From: a virus | Strand: one strand, 5' to 3' | UHGV virus genome: UHGV-0219172 | DNA length: 31,814 nucleotides | In this document: one piece after another, positions 4,200 through 26,160 of the stretch | Numbering within the stretch: the first letter of the stretch is position 1 | Layout of the letters: each line of letters starts with the position of its first letter | The notes under the pieces: model-generated | Databases searched by the model: none | What the model was told of the DNA's origin: nothing | The model's input: the letters and a program-made list of their open reading frames with translations, nothing else | Position numbers and translations under genes: made by a program

Positions 4200-4471
4200 G
4201 TATTCGTATTGAAATTGGCGAACGTTATGTCGTTACCAGTGACAGCTTTCAGTTTATTCTCCACGAGAAAAAGAGAGCGGAAAGCGGTAAAAACGCCGGT
4301 CAGGAATGGCTGTCGGTGGTTGGTTATTACCCGAAATTAAGCCAGCTCGTTTCCGGCCTGATGCATCACGATATTCTGACCGGAAGCGCAAAGTCTTTTG
4401 CTGATTTAAACGCGCAGGTTGAGCAACTCAGCAAGCGTTGTTCAGAGGCTTTTGGCTCATATGGCCGTTAA
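4196..4471 (+). CDS. early operon small protein (P2 orf83-like)
   Basis: 91-aa ORF, overlapping-start coupling with its neighbours. Confidence 0.55.
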   Translation: MSIRIEIGERYVVTSDSFQFILHEKKRAESGKNAGQEWLSVVGYYPKLSQLVSGLMHHDILTGSAKSFADLNAQVEQLSKRCSEAFGSYGR

Positions 4472-6632
4472 AGCCTCCGGGCGTTTTGTCCCTCCGCCAG
4501 CATTTGCCGCAGGCACCGGTAAGGCGTTTACCGGTGCTTATGCATGGAACGCGCCACGCGAGGCCGTCGGGCGCGAAAGACCCCTTACACGTGACGAGAT
4601 GCGTCAGGTGCAAGGTGTTTTATCCACGATTAACCGCCTGCCTTACTTTTTGCGCTCGCTGTTTACTTCACGCTATGACTACATCCGGCGCAATAAAAGC
4701 CCGGTGCACGGGTTTTATTTCCTCACATCCACTTTTCAGCGTCGTTTATGGCCGCGCATTGAGCGTGTGAATCAGCGCCATGAAATGAACACCGACGCGT
4801 CGTTACTGTTTCTGGCAGAGCGTGACCACTATGCGCGCCTGCCGGGAATGAATGATAAGGAGCTAAAAAAGTTTGCTGCCCGTATCTCATCGCAGCTTTT
4901 CATGATGTATGAGGAACTCAGCGATGCCTGGGTGGATGCGCATGGCGAAAAAGAATCGCTGTTTACGGATGAGGCGCAGGCTCACCTCTATGGTCATGTT
5001 GCTGGCGCTGCACGTGCTTTCAATATTTCCCCGCTCTACTGGAAAAAATACCGTAAAGGGCAGATGACCACGAGGCAGGCATATTCTGCCATTGCCCGTC
5101 TGTTTAACGATGAGTGGTGGACTCATCAGCTTAAAGGCCAGCGTATGCGCTGGCATGAGGCGTTACTGATTGCTGTCGGGGAGGTCAATAAAGACCGTTC
5201 TCCTTATGCCAGTAAACATGCCATTCGTGATGTGCGTGCACGCCGCCAGGCAAATCTGGAATTTCTTAAATCGTGTGACCTTGAAAACAGGGAAACCGGC
5301 GAGCGCATCGACCTTATCAGTAAGGTGATGGGCAGTATTTCTAATCCTGAAATTCGCCGGATGGAGCTGATGAACACCATTGCCGGTATTGAGCGTTACG
5401 CCGCCGCAGAGGGTGATGTGGGGATGTTTATCACGCTGACCGCGCCGTCAAAGTATCACCCGACACGTCAGGTCAGAAAAGGCGAAAGTAAAACCGTTCA
5501 GCTTAATCACGGCTGGAACGATGAGGCATTTAATCCAAAGGATGCGCAGCGTTATCTCTGCCGCATCTGGAGCCTGATGCGCACGGCATTCAAGGATAAT
5601 GATTTACAGGTCTACGGTTTGCGTGTCGTCGAGCCACACCACGACGGAACGCCGCACTGGCATATGATGCTTTTTTGTAATCCACGCCAGCGTAACCAGA
5701 TTATCGAAATCATGCGTCGCTACGCGCTCAAAGAGGATGGAGACGAAAGAGGAGCTGCGCGAAACCGTTTTCAGGCAAAACACCTTAACCGGGGCGGTGC
5801 TGCGGGATATATCGCGAAATACATTTCAAAAAACATCGACGGCTATGCACTGGATGGTCAGCTCGATAACGATACCGGCAGGCCGCTGAAAGACACAGCG
5901 GCGGCTGTTACCGCATGGGCGTCAACGTGGCGCATCCCGCAATTTAAAACGGTTGGCCTGCCGACAATGGGGGCTTACCGTGAACTACGCAAATTGCCTC
6001 GCGGCGTCAGCATTGCTGATGAGTTTGACGAACGCGTCGAGGTTGCACGCGCCGCCGCAGACAGTGGTGATTTTGCGTTGTATATCAGCGCGCAGGGCGG
6101 GGCAAATGTCCCGCGCGATTGTCAGACTGTCAGGGTCGCCCGTAGTCCGTCGGATGAAGTTAACGAGTACGAGGAAGAAGTCGAGAGAGTGGTCGGCATT
6201 TACGCGCCGCATCTCGGCGCGCGTCATATTCATATCACCAGAACGACGGACTGGCGCATTGTGCCGAAAGTGCCGGTCGTTGAGCCTTTGACTTTAAAAA
6301 GCGGCATCGCCGCGCCTCGGAGTCCTGTCAATAACTGTGGAAAGTTCACCGGCGGTGACGTTCCGGTTATGCACCCTACACCGTCTGAGCATGCCGCAGC
6401 GGTGTTAAATCTGGTTGATAGTGGTGTTATCGGATGGGATGACCCGGAAGTTGTGACGGTGCTCAGGAGTGCATTAAAACATGGTGCACCGAGACCGAAT
6501 TGGCAACAAAGAAACTGCGAACCATTAAAACCGTACCAGATAGCGCCATCAGGGCGGATGAAAAAGGCTGAACGTTCGCAGATTCCACGCATCCATTTCG
6601 AGCTGGCACTAATTGGTAAAACCTATCAATAG
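4461..6632 (+). CDS. A: replication initiation protein A (rolling-circle nickase)
   Basis: Large ORF; the translation contains GYIAKYISKNIDGY, the paired active-site tyrosine motif of P2 A-type initiators. Start is ambiguous: in-frame ATGs at 4419 and 4461, both overlapping the end of the upstream gene. Confidence 0.85.
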   Translation: MAVKASGRFVPPPAFAAGTGKAFTGAYAWNAPREAVGRERPLTRDEMRQVQGVLSTINRLPYFLRSLFTSRYDYIRRNKSPVHGFYFLTSTFQRRLWPRIERVNQRHEMNTDASLLFLAERDHYARLPGMNDKELKKFAARISSQLFMMYEELSDAWVDAHGEKESLFTDEAQAHLYGHVAGAARAFNISPLYWKKYRKGQMTTRQAYSAIARLFNDEWWTHQLKGQRMRWHEALLIAVGEVNKDRSPYASKHAIRDVRARRQANLEFLKSCDLENRETGERIDLISKVMGSISNPEIRRMELMNTIAGIERYAAAEGDVGMFITLTAPSKYHPTRQVRKGESKTVQLNHGWNDEAFNPKDAQRYLCRIWSLMRTAFKDNDLQVYGLRVVEPHHDGTPHWHMMLFCNPRQRNQIIEIMRRYALKEDGDERGAARNRFQAKHLNRGGAAGYIAKYISKNIDGYALDGQLDNDTGRPLKDTAAAVTAWASTWRIPQFKTVGLPTMGAYRELRKLPRGVSIADEFDERVEVARAAADSGDFALYISAQGGANVPRDCQTVRVARSPSDEVNEYEEEVERVVGIYAPHLGARHIHITRTTDWRIVPKVPVVEPLTLKSGIAAPRSPVNNCGKFTGGDVPVMHPTPSEHAAAVLNLVDSGVIGWDDPEVVTVLRSALKHGAPRPNWQQRNCEPLKPYQIAPSGRMKKAERSQIPRIHFELALIGKTYQ

Positions 6633-6735
6633 TGATTTAATGAAATTTCGGAGTCATAAATATTGTGTATTTAACTAGATGATTGCAATATAAGTGCTTA
6701 TTATTTATGCGATTATAGCCATAACGGAGCTGAGT

Positions 6736-7665
6736 ATGAGTGTTGCAAGGCATCATCATTTTTTATCCCAATGTTATTTGAAAGGGTTTACAAGTAATGG
6801 GGGGAAAAAATCAAAATTAACTGTAATAGATTTAAAGGAGCGCAAAACCTTTGAGAGTAATACTCGCAATGTCGGGGGGGTTAGAGATTTCAACCGATTA
6901 GAATTGGATGGAGTTGACCCAAACTATCTCGAGAGTTCTCTTGCAGAGTTTGAAGGCAGTGTAGCTACTCATTTAAGAAAACTTGAGGAGGGGGGCGAGT
7001 TTTCAGGCGAAACCAAAGATGTTATTCTGGAGTTTATTTCCTTATTGGCAATACGTACGCCTGCTCAGCGAGAACATTTATCATCTCCATTGAAACAAAT
7101 AGCAAAGTTTATCATGAAATCCTCAGTTAGTTCGGCTGAGCGTTGGGACGATTGCAAATTAGCTTATGAGAAAGAAATGGGTGAGTCTTTGCCATATGAT
7201 CTCGCTTACGAAAAAATTAAAAATTTTGTGGATGGGGATAATTTCGAAATCAATGTAATCAGAGAGTTCATGATAGATATGGAAATGAAATGTGTACCTG
7301 TTATCACCAAGTTGTTGCATCAACGCAACTGGTCACTTATGACCATATCTGATGGGCAAGGGTCATTTATAACTTCAGATAACCCAGTTTGCTTAATGTG
7401 GACTAATCCTGAATTAGCACGAGGCCCTTATTCCCCCGGGTTTGGTGTAAAAGACACTTTAGTTTTGTTCCCAGTATCAAAAAACCTTCTTTTGGCGGGC
7501 GAGTTTGATGGTCATGAGGGTGTATTCAGTTGTAATGAGGAGCAGGCTGCGGTCTTCAATACTTCAGTCATTCGGCATACCGCAGAAAGAATATTTTCAT
7601 CTAATGATAATTTCAAATTTTTAGACTCATCTAAAAAAATGAAGCAAGGCAAAAGCCTGGTTTGA
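6736..7665 (+). CDS. cargo gene at the A-cos (tin/old) position: DUF4238-like protein, candidate single-gene anti-phage defence
   Basis: ATG 6736 with GGAG SD (6726-6729). The track start at 6694 is GTG. N-terminus HHFLSQCYLKGF and internal ITSDNPV resemble recalled DUF4238 signatures. Visibly AT-rich relative to the flanking phage genes. Confidence 0.55.
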   Translation: MSVARHHHFLSQCYLKGFTSNGGKKSKLTVIDLKERKTFESNTRNVGGVRDFNRLELDGVDPNYLESSLAEFEGSVATHLRKLEEGGEFSGETKDVILEFISLLAIRTPAQREHLSSPLKQIAKFIMKSSVSSAERWDDCKLAYEKEMGESLPYDLAYEKIKNFVDGDNFEINVIREFMIDMEMKCVPVITKLLHQRNWSLMTISDGQGSFITSDNPVCLMWTNPELARGPYSPGFGVKDTLVLFPVSKNLLLAGEFDGHEGVFSCNEEQAAVFNTSVIRHTAERIFSSNDNFKFLDSSKKMKQGKSLV

Positions 7666-7880
7666 TAGCGGTTTTTCTATGATTTTACTAGGAGAATTCT
7701 ACCCTTAATCAGTGTGTTTAAAATGATTAATTGTCATAACATTTTTTCATTTTTAGGTGTGCCTAGAAATGCATTCAATTGCATGCGTTTTCCTCCCCTG
7801 TTGCGTCTGAGCGCCACCAGTGCCGGCGCGCCTCCGGTGTATTCGTGCACCTGCATTAAAACCGACCCATAAAGCGGGCA

Positions 7881-7899
7881 GGCGAGGCGGGGATAGCAC
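7881..7899. other. candidate cos site (19-nt cohesive end region GGCGAGGCGGGGATAGCAC)
   Basis: Lies in the GC-rich non-coding region between the cargo gene and the Q stop, where P2 cos resides. Differs at about two positions from my recollection of P2 cos (GGCGAGGCGGGGAAAGCAC). Confidence 0.5.
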
Positions 7900-8041
7900 T
7901 GCGCGCTGGCGGTGGTGCTGATTTTATTTTTTCAGCGTCTCAGCGCGTCGTGACGGCGTTTGGATTGTGCGCCGGGGCGTTGGTGTGTCTGCGGGGTGTT
8001 TTGTGCGGTGGTGAGCGTGTGAGGGCGTGATGACGGGGTGT

Positions 8042-8063
8042 AAAAAAGCCGCCCGCAGGCGGC
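8042..8063 (-). terminator. rho-independent terminator after Q (minus strand)
   Basis: GC stem GCCGCC/GGCGGC (8048-8053 and 8058-8063) with a 4-nt loop, then a six-A run at 8042-8047 (six U on the minus-strand RNA), immediately after the Q stop codon. Confidence 0.6.
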
Positions 8064-8068
8064 GATGT

Positions 8069-9103
8069 TCAGCCGTTGTCAGTGTCCAGTGAGTAGTTTT
8101 TAAAGCGGATGACCTCCTGACCGAGCCAGCCGTTTATCTCGCGGATCCTGTCCTGTAGCGGGATAAGCTCATTGCGGACAAAGACCTTTGCCACTTTCTC
8201 AATATCACCCAGCGACCCGACGTTCTCCGGCTTGCCGCCCATCAACTGAAAGGGGATGCGGTGCGCGTCCAGCAGGTCAGCGGCGCTGGCTTTTTTGATA
8301 TTAAAAAAATCGTCCTTCGTTGCCACTTCACTGAGCGGGATAATTTTAATGCCGTCGGCTTTCCCCTGCGGGGCATAGAGAAACAGATTTTTAAAGTTGT
8401 TGCGGCCTTTCGACTTGACCATGTTTTCGCGAAGCATTTCGATATCGTTGCGATCCTGCACGGCATCGGTGACGTACATGATATATCCGGCATGAGCGCC
8501 GTTTTCGTAATACTTGCGGCGGAACAGCGTGGCCGACTCATTCAGCCAGGCAGAATTAAGGGCGCTGAGATATTCCGGCAGGCCGTACAGCTCCTGATTA
8601 ATATCCGGCTCCAGCAGGTGAAACACGGAGCCGGGCGCGAAGGCTGTCGGCTCGTTGAAGGACGGCACCCACCAGTAAACATCCTCCTCCACGCCACGGC
8701 GGGTATATTTTGCCGGTGAGGTTTCCAGTCTGATGACCTTACCGGTGGTGCTGTAACGCTTTTCCAGAAACGCATTACCGAACACCAGAAAATCCAGCAC
8801 AAAGCGGCTGAAATCCTGCTGGGAAAGCCACGGGTGCGGAATAAACGTTGAAGCCAGAATATTACGTTTGACGTAAATCGGTGAGCTGTGATGTACGGCA
8901 GCACGCAGGCTTTTTGCCAGACCGGTAAAGCTGACCGGTGGCTCATACCATCTGCCGTTACTGATGCACTCGACGTAATCCAGAATGTCACGGCGGTCGA
9001 GTACCGGCACCGGTTCACCAAAGGTGAATGCCTCCATTTTCGGGGCGCTGGCGGTCATTTTTTTTGCCGCAGGTTGCGGTGTTTTCCCTTTTTTCTTGCT
9101 CAT
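8069..9103 (-). CDS. Q: portal protein
   Basis: 344-aa ORF on the minus strand, in an operon with the large terminase and divergent from O, as in P2. Confidence 0.9.
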   Translation of the reverse strand: MSKKKGKTPQPAAKKMTASAPKMEAFTFGEPVPVLDRRDILDYVECISNGRWYEPPVSFTGLAKSLRAAVHHSSPIYVKRNILASTFIPHPWLSQQDFSRFVLDFLVFGNAFLEKRYSTTGKVIRLETSPAKYTRRGVEEDVYWWVPSFNEPTAFAPGSVFHLLEPDINQELYGLPEYLSALNSAWLNESATLFRRKYYENGAHAGYIMYVTDAVQDRNDIEMLRENMVKSKGRNNFKNLFLYAPQGKADGIKIIPLSEVATKDDFFNIKKASAADLLDAHRIPFQLMGGKPENVGSLGDIEKVAKVFVRNELIPLQDRIREINGWLGQEVIRFKNYSLDTDNG

Positions 9104-17453: not shown

Positions 17454-18197
17454 TTATCTGGTTAAATAAGTGAGCTCACTCTCTTTAGGTATTAGCTGAG
17501 TGTCTCCTCCCCATTCGTTCATGATGTTTTTTCTCGCATTCCAGTATTCTTGGTAAGTATCTTGATGAACAGTGTAGATACTTGCTAAAAGCCAGTGTTG
17601 ATACTTAAGAGTCGTGTATTGGTATTCTTCTATTATCGGTAAAATGAATAAGTTTTTTTGCTTTAGTGAGATTAAATATTCTTTTGTTTGTTTGGTGGTT
17701 CTGTCATTGTTTAAGATTCTTTCAATCTTAAATGAAAAGCCGTGCATGTTTATATTTCTTTGGAGGTGCATGAATGATGATATTGATGGGGCGATCATGT
17801 TTTGATGCGTCAGGATGTTTCTTAAATCCTCCATTAATTTTATTACTGGATTATTTCGGAATTCATGATTGATGAATGCCTCTGATTTGATTTTAATGTC
17901 GGCAATATTTAATGCTTTTGTTTTAAGTAGGTTGCGCGTTGAATCTCTAAATGATAATGCTGAAGATATATAATTGAAAAGGTGTCTTGATATGTTTAAA
18001 TGTTCTTTTTTAAATTTGTCTCTGTTAAATGAATGACGGGAAACAATGTCAGGGGAGTTGAATTTGCTTAATTCATGTTGGACAACTTCGTAATTGGCAA
18101 TATGCATATGTCCAAGTAAATTGGTGTCGGAGATTTTTAAATACTCTTGGTGGGCGATGGTGTCTTTTTGATTTTCCCAGATTTGATATTTATCCAT
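17454..18197 (-). CDS. cargo gene at the S-V (P2 orf30) position: 247-aa protein of unknown family with two RNxxxH motifs, candidate HEPN-like defence/abortive-infection protein
   Basis: Antisense to the late operon, with its own SD (AAGGAA upstream of the minus-strand ATG). Visibly AT-rich. Motifs LRNILTH (R126 to H131) and QRNINMH (R147 to H152) fit the HEPN Rx4-6H pattern. I recognise no family. Confidence 0.5.
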   Translation of the reverse strand: MDKYQIWENQKDTIAHQEYLKISDTNLLGHMHIANYEVVQHELSKFNSPDIVSRHSFNRDKFKKEHLNISRHLFNYISSALSFRDSTRNLLKTKALNIADIKIKSEAFINHEFRNNPVIKLMEDLRNILTHQNMIAPSISSFMHLQRNINMHGFSFKIERILNNDRTTKQTKEYLISLKQKNLFILPIIEEYQYTTLKYQHWLLASIYTVHQDTYQEYWNARKNIMNEWGGDTQLIPKESELTYLTR

Positions 18198-22638: not shown

Positions 22639-23166
22639 ATGCAGCATTTAAAAAATATTATTGCGGGTAATCCAAAAACTGTTGCCCAATATCAACTGAC
22701 AAAAAATTTTGATGTTATCTGGTTATGGTCCGAAGAGGGAAAAAACTGGTATGAGGAAGTAAGTAATTTTCAGGAGGACACGATAAAGATTGTTTACGAC
22801 GAGAATAATATAATTGTCGGCATCACCAGAGATGCTTCAACGCTTAACCCTGAAGGTTTTAGCGTTGTCGAGGTTCCTGATATTACCGCCAACCGACGTG
22901 CTGATGACTCAGGTAAATGGATGTTTAAGGATGGTGCCGTGATTAAGCGGATTTATACGGCAGACGAACAGCAACAACAGGCCGAATCACAAAAGGCCGC
23001 GTTACTTTCCGAAGCGGAAAGCGTTATCCAGCCGCTGGAACGCACCGTCAGGCTGAATATGGCGACGGATGAGGAGCGCGCACGACTGGAGTCATGGGAA
23101 CGCTACAGCGTTCTGGTCAGCCGTGTGGATCCTGCAAATCCTGAATGGCCGGAAATACCGCAATAA
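22639..23166 (+). CDS. G: tail fiber assembly chaperone
   Basis: 175-aa ORF immediately after H, with lower GC like the H C-terminus. Confidence 0.8.
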
Positions 23167-23456: not shown

Positions 23457-24683
23457 ATGTTACAGTTCAGCTTTGTATCAAATGACGTTGTTATGACTTA
23501 CGACGGTGACAGCGGAGAACAAATAATTTGGGTTTGGGAGAGTTTAAATAAATTTCAAACAGTATGCATTTCACGAATTTTTAACTTTCAACTCCAGGAC
23601 TTGAGAAACCCACCGTCAACCGTTCAGGATTTTAATGATTACGAATATTCCTTTAATTTTGGCACGCTTAATAATGAATACATAACAGTTCCGGGACGGA
23701 TTCTAAGCATTAATCGAGATGTCCTTATACATAAGTCCATCAAGCTTGAAAGGAAAGTATTTGCGTCAGAACGCAACGTCTCCATTTTTGGTCGGCTTTC
23801 AAAACTACTCGATCACACTAATCCCATCATCATCGGAGGAGATAAGCCGGAAGCTATACCAAAAAGCGTATTCCAGGAGTTGCAAAGTAAATTCCACAAC
23901 ACAGGGGAACTGGATCGCTATGCTAATGCAAGGGTTCACGCTATTCTCGCAGGTTATCTTGATGGTATGAAAGATGCTCGCGAACGGTATGAACATTACC
24001 TAAACAGAAAAACAGTGATCAGAAAAACCGACAAACTGGATTTAGAAGTTTTAAATAAGCTCGAAATTGAGAAATATACACTCATAAGAGACATTATCCA
24101 GGATGCGTTGAATAACAAAACTAACTTGTCTGAAGATGACTGGCAGAGCCTGATGATACCCTTCATCACATTACTTTTTCCAAAATATATCAAGGTCCTC
24201 GAGAAGGTTAAAATTTTCGACTATTACTCTAATCCTTCGGCTAAAACAAATCGGTTTATAGACATTGCACTGGTGGATGCAAACGGCAACCTTGATATCA
24301 TCGAAGTCAAAAAGCCGTTTGATGATAAGATCCTTCGCAAGACGCCCTATCGCGATAACTATATTCCTACATCAGAACTTAGCGGCGGTATTATGCAGGC
24401 TGAAAAGTATATTTTTCATTTATCTAAATGGGGTGTTAAGGGTGAAAAAGAGCTTACGAATGCCTACAAGAATTCTCTGCCAGCGGGAATGTGTATTCGT
24501 ATATCTAACCCAAAAGCCATCATCATTGTCGGACGCGATCAGATAGCGAACGGTAACATGACCGACGGTCAGTTGCTTGATTTTGAGATAATCAAACGTA
24601 AGTACGCCAACATGATAGACATATTGACGTACGACGACCTGTTGCGTCGACTTAATAATACGATTGAAGCATTGAAAGGTTGA
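23457..24683 (+). CDS. cargo gene at the G-FI (Z/fun) position: 408-aa protein with a C-terminal PD-(D/E)xK nuclease-like core, possibly Shedu (DUF4263)-like; candidate anti-phage defence
   Basis: ATG 23457 with GAGG SD. Visibly AT-rich, flanked by about 290 bp of non-coding DNA on each side. C-terminal region FIDIALVDANGNLDIIEVKKP ... QAEKY gives D269/D280, E283-x-K285 and Q314...Y318, a restriction-endonuclease-fold pattern. Confidence 0.5.
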   Translation: MLQFSFVSNDVVMTYDGDSGEQIIWVWESLNKFQTVCISRIFNFQLQDLRNPPSTVQDFNDYEYSFNFGTLNNEYITVPGRILSINRDVLIHKSIKLERKVFASERNVSIFGRLSKLLDHTNPIIIGGDKPEAIPKSVFQELQSKFHNTGELDRYANARVHAILAGYLDGMKDARERYEHYLNRKTVIRKTDKLDLEVLNKLEIEKYTLIRDIIQDALNNKTNLSEDDWQSLMIPFITLLFPKYIKVLEKVKIFDYYSNPSAKTNRFIDIALVDANGNLDIIEVKKPFDDKILRKTPYRDNYIPTSELSGGIMQAEKYIFHLSKWGVKGEKELTNAYKNSLPAGMCIRISNPKAIIIVGRDQIANGNMTDGQLLDFEIIKRKYANMIDILTYDDLLRRLNNTIEALKG

Positions 24684-24969: not shown

Positions 24970-26160
24970 ATGAGTGACTATCATCACGGCGTGCAGGTGC
25001 TGGAGATTAACGACGGCACCCGCGTCATTTCCACCGTATCCACCGCCATTGTTGGCATGGTCTGCACGGCCAGCGATGCGGATGCGGAAATCTTCCCACT
25101 CAATAAACCGGTGCTGATTACCAATGTGCAGAGCGCAATTGCAAAGGCCGGTAAAAAAGGCACGCTGGCGGCGTCGTTACAGGCCATCGCTGACCAGTCA
25201 AAACCGGTCACCGTTGTCGTACGTGTGGAAGACGGCACCGGCGACGACGAGGAAACGAAACTCGCGCAGACCGTTTCCAATATCATCGGCACTACCGACG
25301 AAAACGGTCAGTACACCGGACTGAAAGCCCTGCTGGCGGCGGAGTCGGTAACCGGTGTTAAACCGCGTATTCTCGGTGTGCCGGGGCTGGATACCAAAGA
25401 GGTGGCTGTTGCACTGGCATCAGTCTGTCAGAAGCTGCGCGCTTTCGGGTATATCAGCGCATGGGGCTGTAAAACCATTTCCGAGGTGAAAGCTTACCGC
25501 CAGAATTTCAGCCAGCGTGAGCTGATGGTCATCTGGCCGGATTTCCTCGCATGGGATACGGTCGCCAGTACCACCGCCACCGCGTATGCCACCGCCCGTG
25601 CGCTGGGTCTGCGCGCTAAAATCGACCAGGAGCAGGGCTGGCATAAAACGCTGTCCAACGTCGGGGTGAACGGTGTTACCGGCATCAGCGCATCTGTATT
25701 CTGGGATTTGCAGGAGTCCGGTACTGATGCTGACCTGCTTAACGAGTCAGGTGTCACTACGCTGATTCGCCGCGACGGTTTCCGCTTCTGGGGTAACTGT
25801 ACCTGCTCTGATGACCCGCTGTTCCTCTTTGAAAACTACACCCGCACCGCGCAGGTGTTGGCCGACACGATGGCTGAGGCGCACATGTGGGCGGTGGATA
25901 AGCCCATCACCGCAACGCTGATTCGCGACATCGTTGACGGCATCAATGCCAAATTCCGTGAGCTGAAAACAAACGGCTATATCGTGGATGCGACCTGCTG
26001 GTTCAGCGAAGAATCCAACGATGCGGAAACCCTCAAGGCCGGAAAACTGTATATCGACTACGACTATACACCGGTGCCTCCTCTCGAAAACCTGACCCTG
26101 CGCCAGCGTATTACCGATAAATACCTGGCAAATCTGGTCACCTCGGTTAACAGCAATTAA
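24970..26160 (+). CDS. FI: contractile tail sheath protein
   Basis: 396-aa ORF followed by the tail tube gene; conserved P2 FI/FII pair. Confidence 0.9.
   Translation: MSDYHHGVQVLEINDGTRVISTVSTAIVGMVCTASDADAEIFPLNKPVLITNVQSAIAKAGKKGTLAASLQAIADQSKPVTVVVRVEDGTGDDEETKLAQTVSNIIGTTDENGQYTGLKALLAAESVTGVKPRILGVPGLDTKEVAVALASVCQKLRAFGYISAWGCKTISEVKAYRQNFSQRELMVIWPDFLAWDTVASTTATAYATARALGLRAKIDQEQGWHKTLSNVGVNGVTGISASVFWDLQESGTDADLLNESGVTTLIRRDGFRFWGNCTCSDDPLFLFENYTRTAQVLADTMAEAHMWAVDKPITATLIRDIVDGINAKFRELKTNGYIVDATCWFSEESNDAETLKAGKLYIDYDYTPVPPLENLTLRQRITDKYLANLVTSVNSN

Follow-up and report, generated by a model that had tools for sequence, protein, structure and literature searches.

What is encoded by the AT-rich gene that the P2-like prophage UHGV-0219172 carries between its replication gene A and its cohesive end, and by what means might the product act? 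From the letters alone, an earlier reading (the sequence-only reading hereafter) had proposed a DUF4238-like cargo gene at positions 6736-7665. We analysed this locus within the window, that is, the whole stretch of 31,814 nucleotides. The gene is, almost beyond doubt, the single-gene anti-phage defence DUF4238 (Rst_DUF4238 in DefenseFinder, DUF4238 in PADLOC), carried as cargo by a P2-like prophage of E. coli nearly identical to Escherichia phage pro483. The best overall explanation, which we regard as likely, is an acquired DUF4238 defence that would protect against T7-like phages, perhaps through a self-contained action of the enzyme type.

The ORF was found on the plus strand exactly as claimed. 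It opens with an ATG at 6736, preceded at a distance of 6 nt by a GGAG Shine-Dalgarno sequence (6726-6729), and its stop codon ends at 7665, giving a product of 309 aa. At the local base composition, the chance that 309 codons stay open is ~1e-10 per start. The longer ORF with a GTG start at 6694 that appears in the mechanical ORF list was rejected on the basis of the homologue starts; the 41 aligned homologues start without exception at the M-S/T-x-x-R-H-H-H (MS/MT-x-RHHH) position, and the start was therefore set at 6736. This is a constrained coding gene, because dN/dS over the whole CDS is 0.10-0.11 when compared with alleles of 92-93% identity. In the same comparison, residues 1-86 have accumulated 17-20 synonymous changes versus 0-1.5 non-synonymous ones, and the gene is under purifying selection. 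Sequence-based prediction gives a soluble product of 34.9 kDa, with a pI of 6.0 and zero transmembrane segments. The AT-richness that had caught the eye is real: the GC content is 39% in the CDS (GC3 35%) and 29% in the 103-nt spacer upstream, versus ~53% in the flanking genes A and Q.

The surrounding interval is organised as follows. The left anchor of the hotspot is the replication gene A (gpA; 4461-6632, plus strand; start at 4419 in the mechanical ORF list), identified by Pfam Phage_GPA (1e-122), and its equivalent in pro483 is annotated 'nicking at origin of replication'. It is followed by the AT-rich spacer (6633-6735, plus strand), which probably holds a promoter for the cargo gene, by the DUF4238 CDS itself and by the 3' untranslated tail of the cassette (7666-7790, plus strand), which is conserved between alleles (~85-90% identity to those of 92-93%). 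The junction between cassette and phage backbone (7791-7852) is variable, its sequence being unrelated among alleles and to P2. The right anchor (7853-7899, plus strand) consists of cos-proximal conserved DNA that aligns with the right end of P2, the homology starting at ~7853, and of the 19-nt cohesive-end sequence GGCGAGGCGGGGATAGCAC (7881-7899), which matches the annotated P2 cosR at 18/19 positions. The right end of the PSP3 record corresponds to window position 7880. Beyond cos lies the portal gene Q (8069-9103, minus strand), recognised by Pfam Phage_portal and annotated as portal in both pro483 and E. coli TOK-001.

The gene thus lies where it had been placed, between gene A and the cos/Q region, and this is indeed the tin/old position, as orf91, tin and old occupy the same interval of P2. 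From gene A up to cos there is no other CDS. Having both this location and a foreign base composition, the gene belongs to the hotspot and is horizontally acquired cargo in the variable gene A-cos slot of a P2-like prophage. Two small ORFs in the interval, at 7714-7872 (plus strand) and 7734-7856 (minus strand), were rejected, as neither is conserved as a peptide across alleles or matched by Pfam or PADLOC. The second, which overlaps the variable junction and the cos-proximal DNA, is probably not a gene; in pro483 it is annotated as gp12, a hypothetical protein of 40 aa.

The family assignment is firm. Pfam PF14022 (DUF4238) matched with an E-value of 4e-39 (135.1 bits against a cut-off of 27), residues 7-291 covering nearly the whole profile (positions 2-280 of 281). 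The defence-system model PDLC03000 of PADLOC, 'DUF4238-Pers', matched end to end (residues 1-309 of 309, 725 bits, E 1.5e-219). PHROG 29785, of unknown function, was also matched, and an NCBIfam scan of the protein gave zero matches. Both motifs that the sequence-only reading had likened to DUF4238 signatures contain family-conserved residues: the N-terminal HHFLSQCYLKGF holds the family-conserved H8, Y14 and F18, and the internal ITSDNPV holds T213 and P217.

The sequence-only reading took single DUF4238 genes from P2-like hotspots to be reported anti-phage systems, and the literature bears this out. Rousset et al. (2022, PMC9122126) surveyed the gpA-gpQ interval of P2-like prophages across all E. 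coli genomes and cloned eight further systems from this hotspot, obtaining defence from three. A single DUF4238 protein from the hotspot, whose molecular function they termed unknown, gave strong resistance to T7. The clone, pFR101, has an insert from E. coli TA007 expressed from its native promoter in the host K-12 MG1655, and was active against one of eight phages, T7 (PMC9122126). In their Table S5, WP_001515549 is entered for this locus, and system 50, DUF4238, has 80 occurrences (PMC9122126).

The window protein is RefSeq WP_001515549.1 and is identical at 309/309 residues to the system 50 sequence of Table S5B, of which it is the representative. Against the validated pFR101 protein, also of 309 aa and also from the gpA-cos hotspot of a P2-like prophage, 284/309 residues are identical (92%) in an ungapped alignment, and the 25 substitutions all lie beyond residue 86. 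With 100% identity to system 50 and 92% to pFR101, this is therefore an already known system, as had been supposed. The dedicated HMM match, the stand-alone gene and the close identity to a validated protein together mark it as Rst_DUF4238. It probably protects the lysogen, and hence the prophage, against T7-like phages, as suggested by the 92% identity to the validated clone and by the retention of all conserved residues. The impression that the mechanism is uncharacterised agrees with Rousset et al. (2022) and with a 2024 survey in which Rst_DUF4238 is still among the systems lacking an assignable known domain family. In the literature searched we found neither a mechanistic study of DUF4238 nor a statement on whether its defence is abortive or direct.

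The same locus recurs in related genomes. Its 1248-nt region is 99.9% identical to that of pro483 (Peduovirus pro483), where the annotation has a DUF4238 domain-containing protein flanked by the nicking/replication and portal genes. Among 5426 complete E. coli genomes, 14 carry the locus at an identity of at least 99.7%, always on the chromosome. In E. coli TOK-001, for example, it lies between the replication endonuclease and portal genes and encodes WP_001515549.1. The identical protein is also encoded by 8 IMG/VR viral contigs. These occurrences bear on the idea that this particular allele is not a defence gene at all, being either inactive or cargo put to another use, such as another lysogenic-conversion function. 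The 25 residues that differ from the validated protein would be compatible with this idea, as would the fact that most candidates cloned from such hotspots were inactive (just over a third were active; PMC9122126). It is nevertheless highly improbable: every family- and clade-invariant residue is present, dN/dS is 0.1, the identical protein persists in the 14 complete E. coli genomes, the 8 IMG/VR contigs and phage pro483, and even a decayed remnant in Kluyvera retains a 98%-identical copy.

This remnant, in Kluyvera intermedia (NZ_JAKCNS010000008.1, 5590-8945), is what is left of a P2-like prophage whose gene A is reduced to its last ~300 nt. The gene A remnant is followed by the DUF4238 gene, a cos-like site and a gene for a 555-aa PARIS-like AAA_21+DUF4435 fusion, and the whole is flanked by chromosomal ABC-transporter/YegS genes and by a peptidase U32 gene. 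The defence gene seems here to have survived the decay of its phage. An exchange between P2 and P4 hotspots mediated by cos has been proposed by Rousset et al. (PMC9122126), which agrees with the arrangement here, P2-type cargo on one side of cos and a PARIS-type gene directly on the other.

The limits of the transferred unit and its likely control signals were sought by comparing the window with a 93% allele, a 92% allele and the 98% Kluyvera copy. The shared cassette extends from ~6645 to ~7790. Within the spacer, the 31-nt block TCATAAATATTGTGTATTTAACTAGATGATT (6654-6684) is identical in the 93% allele and the Kluyvera copy, with differences in the neighbouring bases; the ribosome-binding site is likewise identical across the compared alleles. 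The block, a candidate promoter or operator, is invariant between alleles whose coding dS is ~0.3-0.4 and, together with 6691-6709, makes up an imperfect inverted repeat of 19 nt. Both the block and the ribosome-binding site are shared with pFR101, whose DNA differs from that of the window further upstream, outside the cassette. Because pFR101 carried the same block and worked from its native promoter, the DUF4238 promoter probably lies in the AT-rich spacer, between 6645 and 6735; a scan upstream of the gene found no sigma-70 consensus. On the other side, the ~125-nt 3' tail is conserved up to the palindrome TGCATTCAATTGCAT, followed by the unrelated segment 7791-7852 and then by the cos-proximal backbone. 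No convincing terminator was found between the DUF4238 stop codon and cos, the RNA structure of the tail was not significant (z -0.7), and no repeats flank the cassette.

If a single gene makes up the cassette, does the protein act alone? An exhaustive profile search (E up to 1e-3) gave a family of 7722 clusters at 50% identity. The best 150 of these 7722 are, fragments aside, all single-domain proteins of ~300-330 aa. Members of a distant rhizobial branch are likewise single-domain proteins, and no fusions were seen. At 42 homologue loci we scanned the two closest of the ORFs called on either flank: across these loci no Pfam family occurred in more than 3/81 upstream or 2/78 downstream neighbours. 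The 42 loci thus show no conserved partner gene.

The homologues are found in the typical surroundings of mobile and defence regions, namely prophages, plasmids and defence islands. For example, one adjoins Gabija, another lies beside a KAP NTPase gene in a Vibrio prophage, a third stands alongside type I restriction-modification, McrA-like HNH and NERD helicase genes, and a fourth is on an integrative element that also encodes GmrSD and a type I R subunit. Others are carried by conjugative plasmids, and PARIS-like, ThsA-Macro, reverse transcriptase, PLD, AbiU2 and caspase genes were each seen as a neighbour in a single instance. A distant family member on the Pseudomonas syringae plasmid pMG2_SR198 (3741-4843) lies 8 nt downstream of ardR, an anti-restriction gene; the region opens directly after the plasmid's genes for ParA/ParB partition, and nearby are a gene for a zeta toxin and a pair formed by a nucleotidyltransferase and an S-4TM effector. 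A TIR-domain gene and, two genes further downstream, a distant DUF4238 homologue (22% identity) occur on the Agrobacterium vaccinii plasmid pB19.1.4b (1025-4927), with a TrlF-family ATPase gene near the homologue.

This last arrangement recalls a two-protein TIR system of E. coli that includes a DUF4238-domain protein and in which both proteins are required (Nat Commun 2024, PMC11350192). Like the window gene, that system involves a protein of the same Pfam family in E. coli anti-phage defence, the likeness being known at the level of the Pfam family; unlike it, it requires a TIR NADase (PMC11350192). Since the TIR system requires both of its proteins, the DUF4238 fold is not self-sufficient in some contexts, and together with the Agrobacterium plasmid this hints that some DUF4238 branches work with TIR proteins. 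One could accordingly suppose that the window protein, too, is a sensor only or an effector only, dependent on another protein or a small-molecule signal as in TIR-based systems, and the E. coli system and the Agrobacterium neighbourhood would both speak for it. We consider this improbable for the present gene, given that the close homologue in pFR101 was sufficient alone in K-12 MG1655, that the 42 loci show no conserved neighbour and the family no fusions, and that the window gene has no other CDS beside it between gene A and cos. Neither the window hotspot nor the surroundings of the close homologues contain a TIR gene.

What kind of protein might then act alone? The AlphaFold2 model, built on a 42-sequence alignment, is confident (mean pLDDT 88.5, pTM 0.84). 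In this model, a short N-terminal helix with a beta-hairpin (12-42) is followed by a conserved loop (43-63) and a six-helix region (64-195), and the C-terminal half (198-304) is predicted to be beta-rich with one long helix. Searches by structure and by PDB profile returned no solved-structure match; PDB sequence-profile searches with close and with diverse alignments gave a best E-value of 0.078. These structural and profile searches revealed no similarity to solved nuclease, NADase or other enzyme folds. When 18 diverse DUF4238 members were scanned against Pfam and PADLOC at E-values up to 5, no consistent second family emerged. Motifs of the HNH, HIT, HEPN, PD-(D/E)xK and H-Y-E ADP-ribosyltransferase types, looked for by eye, were rejected, as their spacing or secondary structure did not fit the model and fold searches gave them no support. 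Against the viral library, the sole significant Foldseek match was V9IQH5 of Stenotrophomonas phage Smp131 (E 9e-11), an uncharacterised protein with only 13% identity to the window protein. Smp131 is presumably a P2-like phage.

Within the clade, residues 1-63 have a mean identity of 0.69 to the window protein, compared with 0.35 in 109-196 and 0.30 in 268-309. Down to 21% identity, only H8, Y14, L15, F18, D32, G59, E66, P109, W199, T213, P217, F245, P246, L253 and N275 are at least 90% conserved, and D215 is usually retained. The polar members of this small set, H8, D32, E66, T213 and N275, span the Gamma-, Beta- and Alphaproteobacteria and beyond. The window allele has all of the family-invariant and clade-invariant residues.

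A mode of action other than catalysis is suggested by the company that the hotspot keeps. P2 Tin, encoded in the same slot, is annotated as blocking the growth of T-even phages; it acts by poisoning the phage ssDNA-binding protein gp32. The DUF4238 protein could similarly bind one essential phage protein or structure in a stoichiometric manner and poison it, with no enzymatic activity and no killing of the host. The narrow range of the validated homologue, active on T7 only among eight phages, is what would be expected of a specific binder, and neither a catalytic motif nor an enzyme fold was detected. The pattern of conservation argues in the other direction. Binders of fast-evolving phage proteins usually have variable polar surfaces and not invariant ones, yet the polar residues of DUF4238 are fixed down to 21% identity across the Gamma-, Beta- and Alphaproteobacteria and beyond, and the most conserved part of the protein is under near-absolute purifying selection. 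We therefore regard a non-catalytic blocker as unlikely.

The comparison with tin and old themselves is limited to position and role. They share the gene A-cos slot with DUF4238, and in both cases a prophage excludes unrelated phages, T-even phages and lambda for tin/old and, going by the validated homologue, T7 for DUF4238. The P2 genes, however, are on the opposite strand and read leftward from a promoter near cos, whereas the DUF4238 gene is on the gene A strand. PADLOC and Pfam scans at E-values up to 1 gave only DUF4238, with no homology to P2 Old or Tin.

The reading that we prefer, with low confidence, is that of a self-contained enzyme triggered by phage infection. In the lysogen, a promoter of the gene itself, located in the AT-rich spacer of 103 nt, would drive its transcription even though the early operon is repressed. 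The product would be a soluble 35-kDa protein working without a dedicated partner, as the single-domain architecture and the absence of a conserved neighbour suggest. It would be built of modules: the highly conserved N-terminal residues 1-63, the variable helical insert 109-196 and the beta-rich C-terminal half. H8, D32, E66, T213, N275 and, in most members, D215 may form a catalytic or ligand-binding centre, a proposal drawn from conservation, and the variable helical region may be the part that recognises a phage cue. Once infection occurs, this enzyme would act on nucleic acid or on a nucleotide cofactor as its conserved target. We put forward only tentatively the combination of a polar centre in an enzyme of unsolved fold with helices that sense a phage cue. 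A bolder version, somewhat more doubtful still, is that the DUF4238 proteins are founding members of an unsolved enzyme fold, in which one 35-kDa protein both senses T7-like phages and has an activity new to bacterial immunity. This version is permitted by the combination of a confident model, no structural or profile relative, a small polar core that is invariant across the 7722 clusters and no published mechanism that we could find.

The prophage carries further cargo. A 408-aa Shedu SduA gene is located at 23457-24683 (plus strand; Pfam SduA_C 3e-33; PADLOC SduA 3.7e-218, full length), flanked by the genes for tail-fibre assembly (22639-23166) and for the sheath (24970-26160), that is, in the Z/fun cargo slot of P2. 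With Shedu in the Z/fun slot and DUF4238 in the gene A-cos slot, there are therefore two defence systems, one per cargo slot, and a single 30-kb prophage has defence genes in its two cargo slots. In addition, a 246-aa ORF at 17454-18197 (minus strand) lies inside the late tail-gene block on the opposite strand, where P2 has orf30. Neither Pfam nor PADLOC matches this ORF, which may be a third cargo gene.

The identification of the DUF4238 gene is annotation and not discovery, as the exact protein is in RefSeq, the system is in the model sets of DefenseFinder and PADLOC, and the locus is in the 2022 catalogue of P2 hotspots. What is new here is the stand-alone architecture of ~310 aa with no conserved neighbour, the prophage, plasmid and defence-island settings of the homologues, the purifying selection, the model with no solved-fold match and the set of conserved residues. 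The value of the locus is as an entry point to the mechanism of DUF4238, a large family whose members work as single small soluble proteins of no recognisable fold. H8, D32, E66, T213/D215 and N275, along with the variable region 109-196, are direct targets for mutagenesis.
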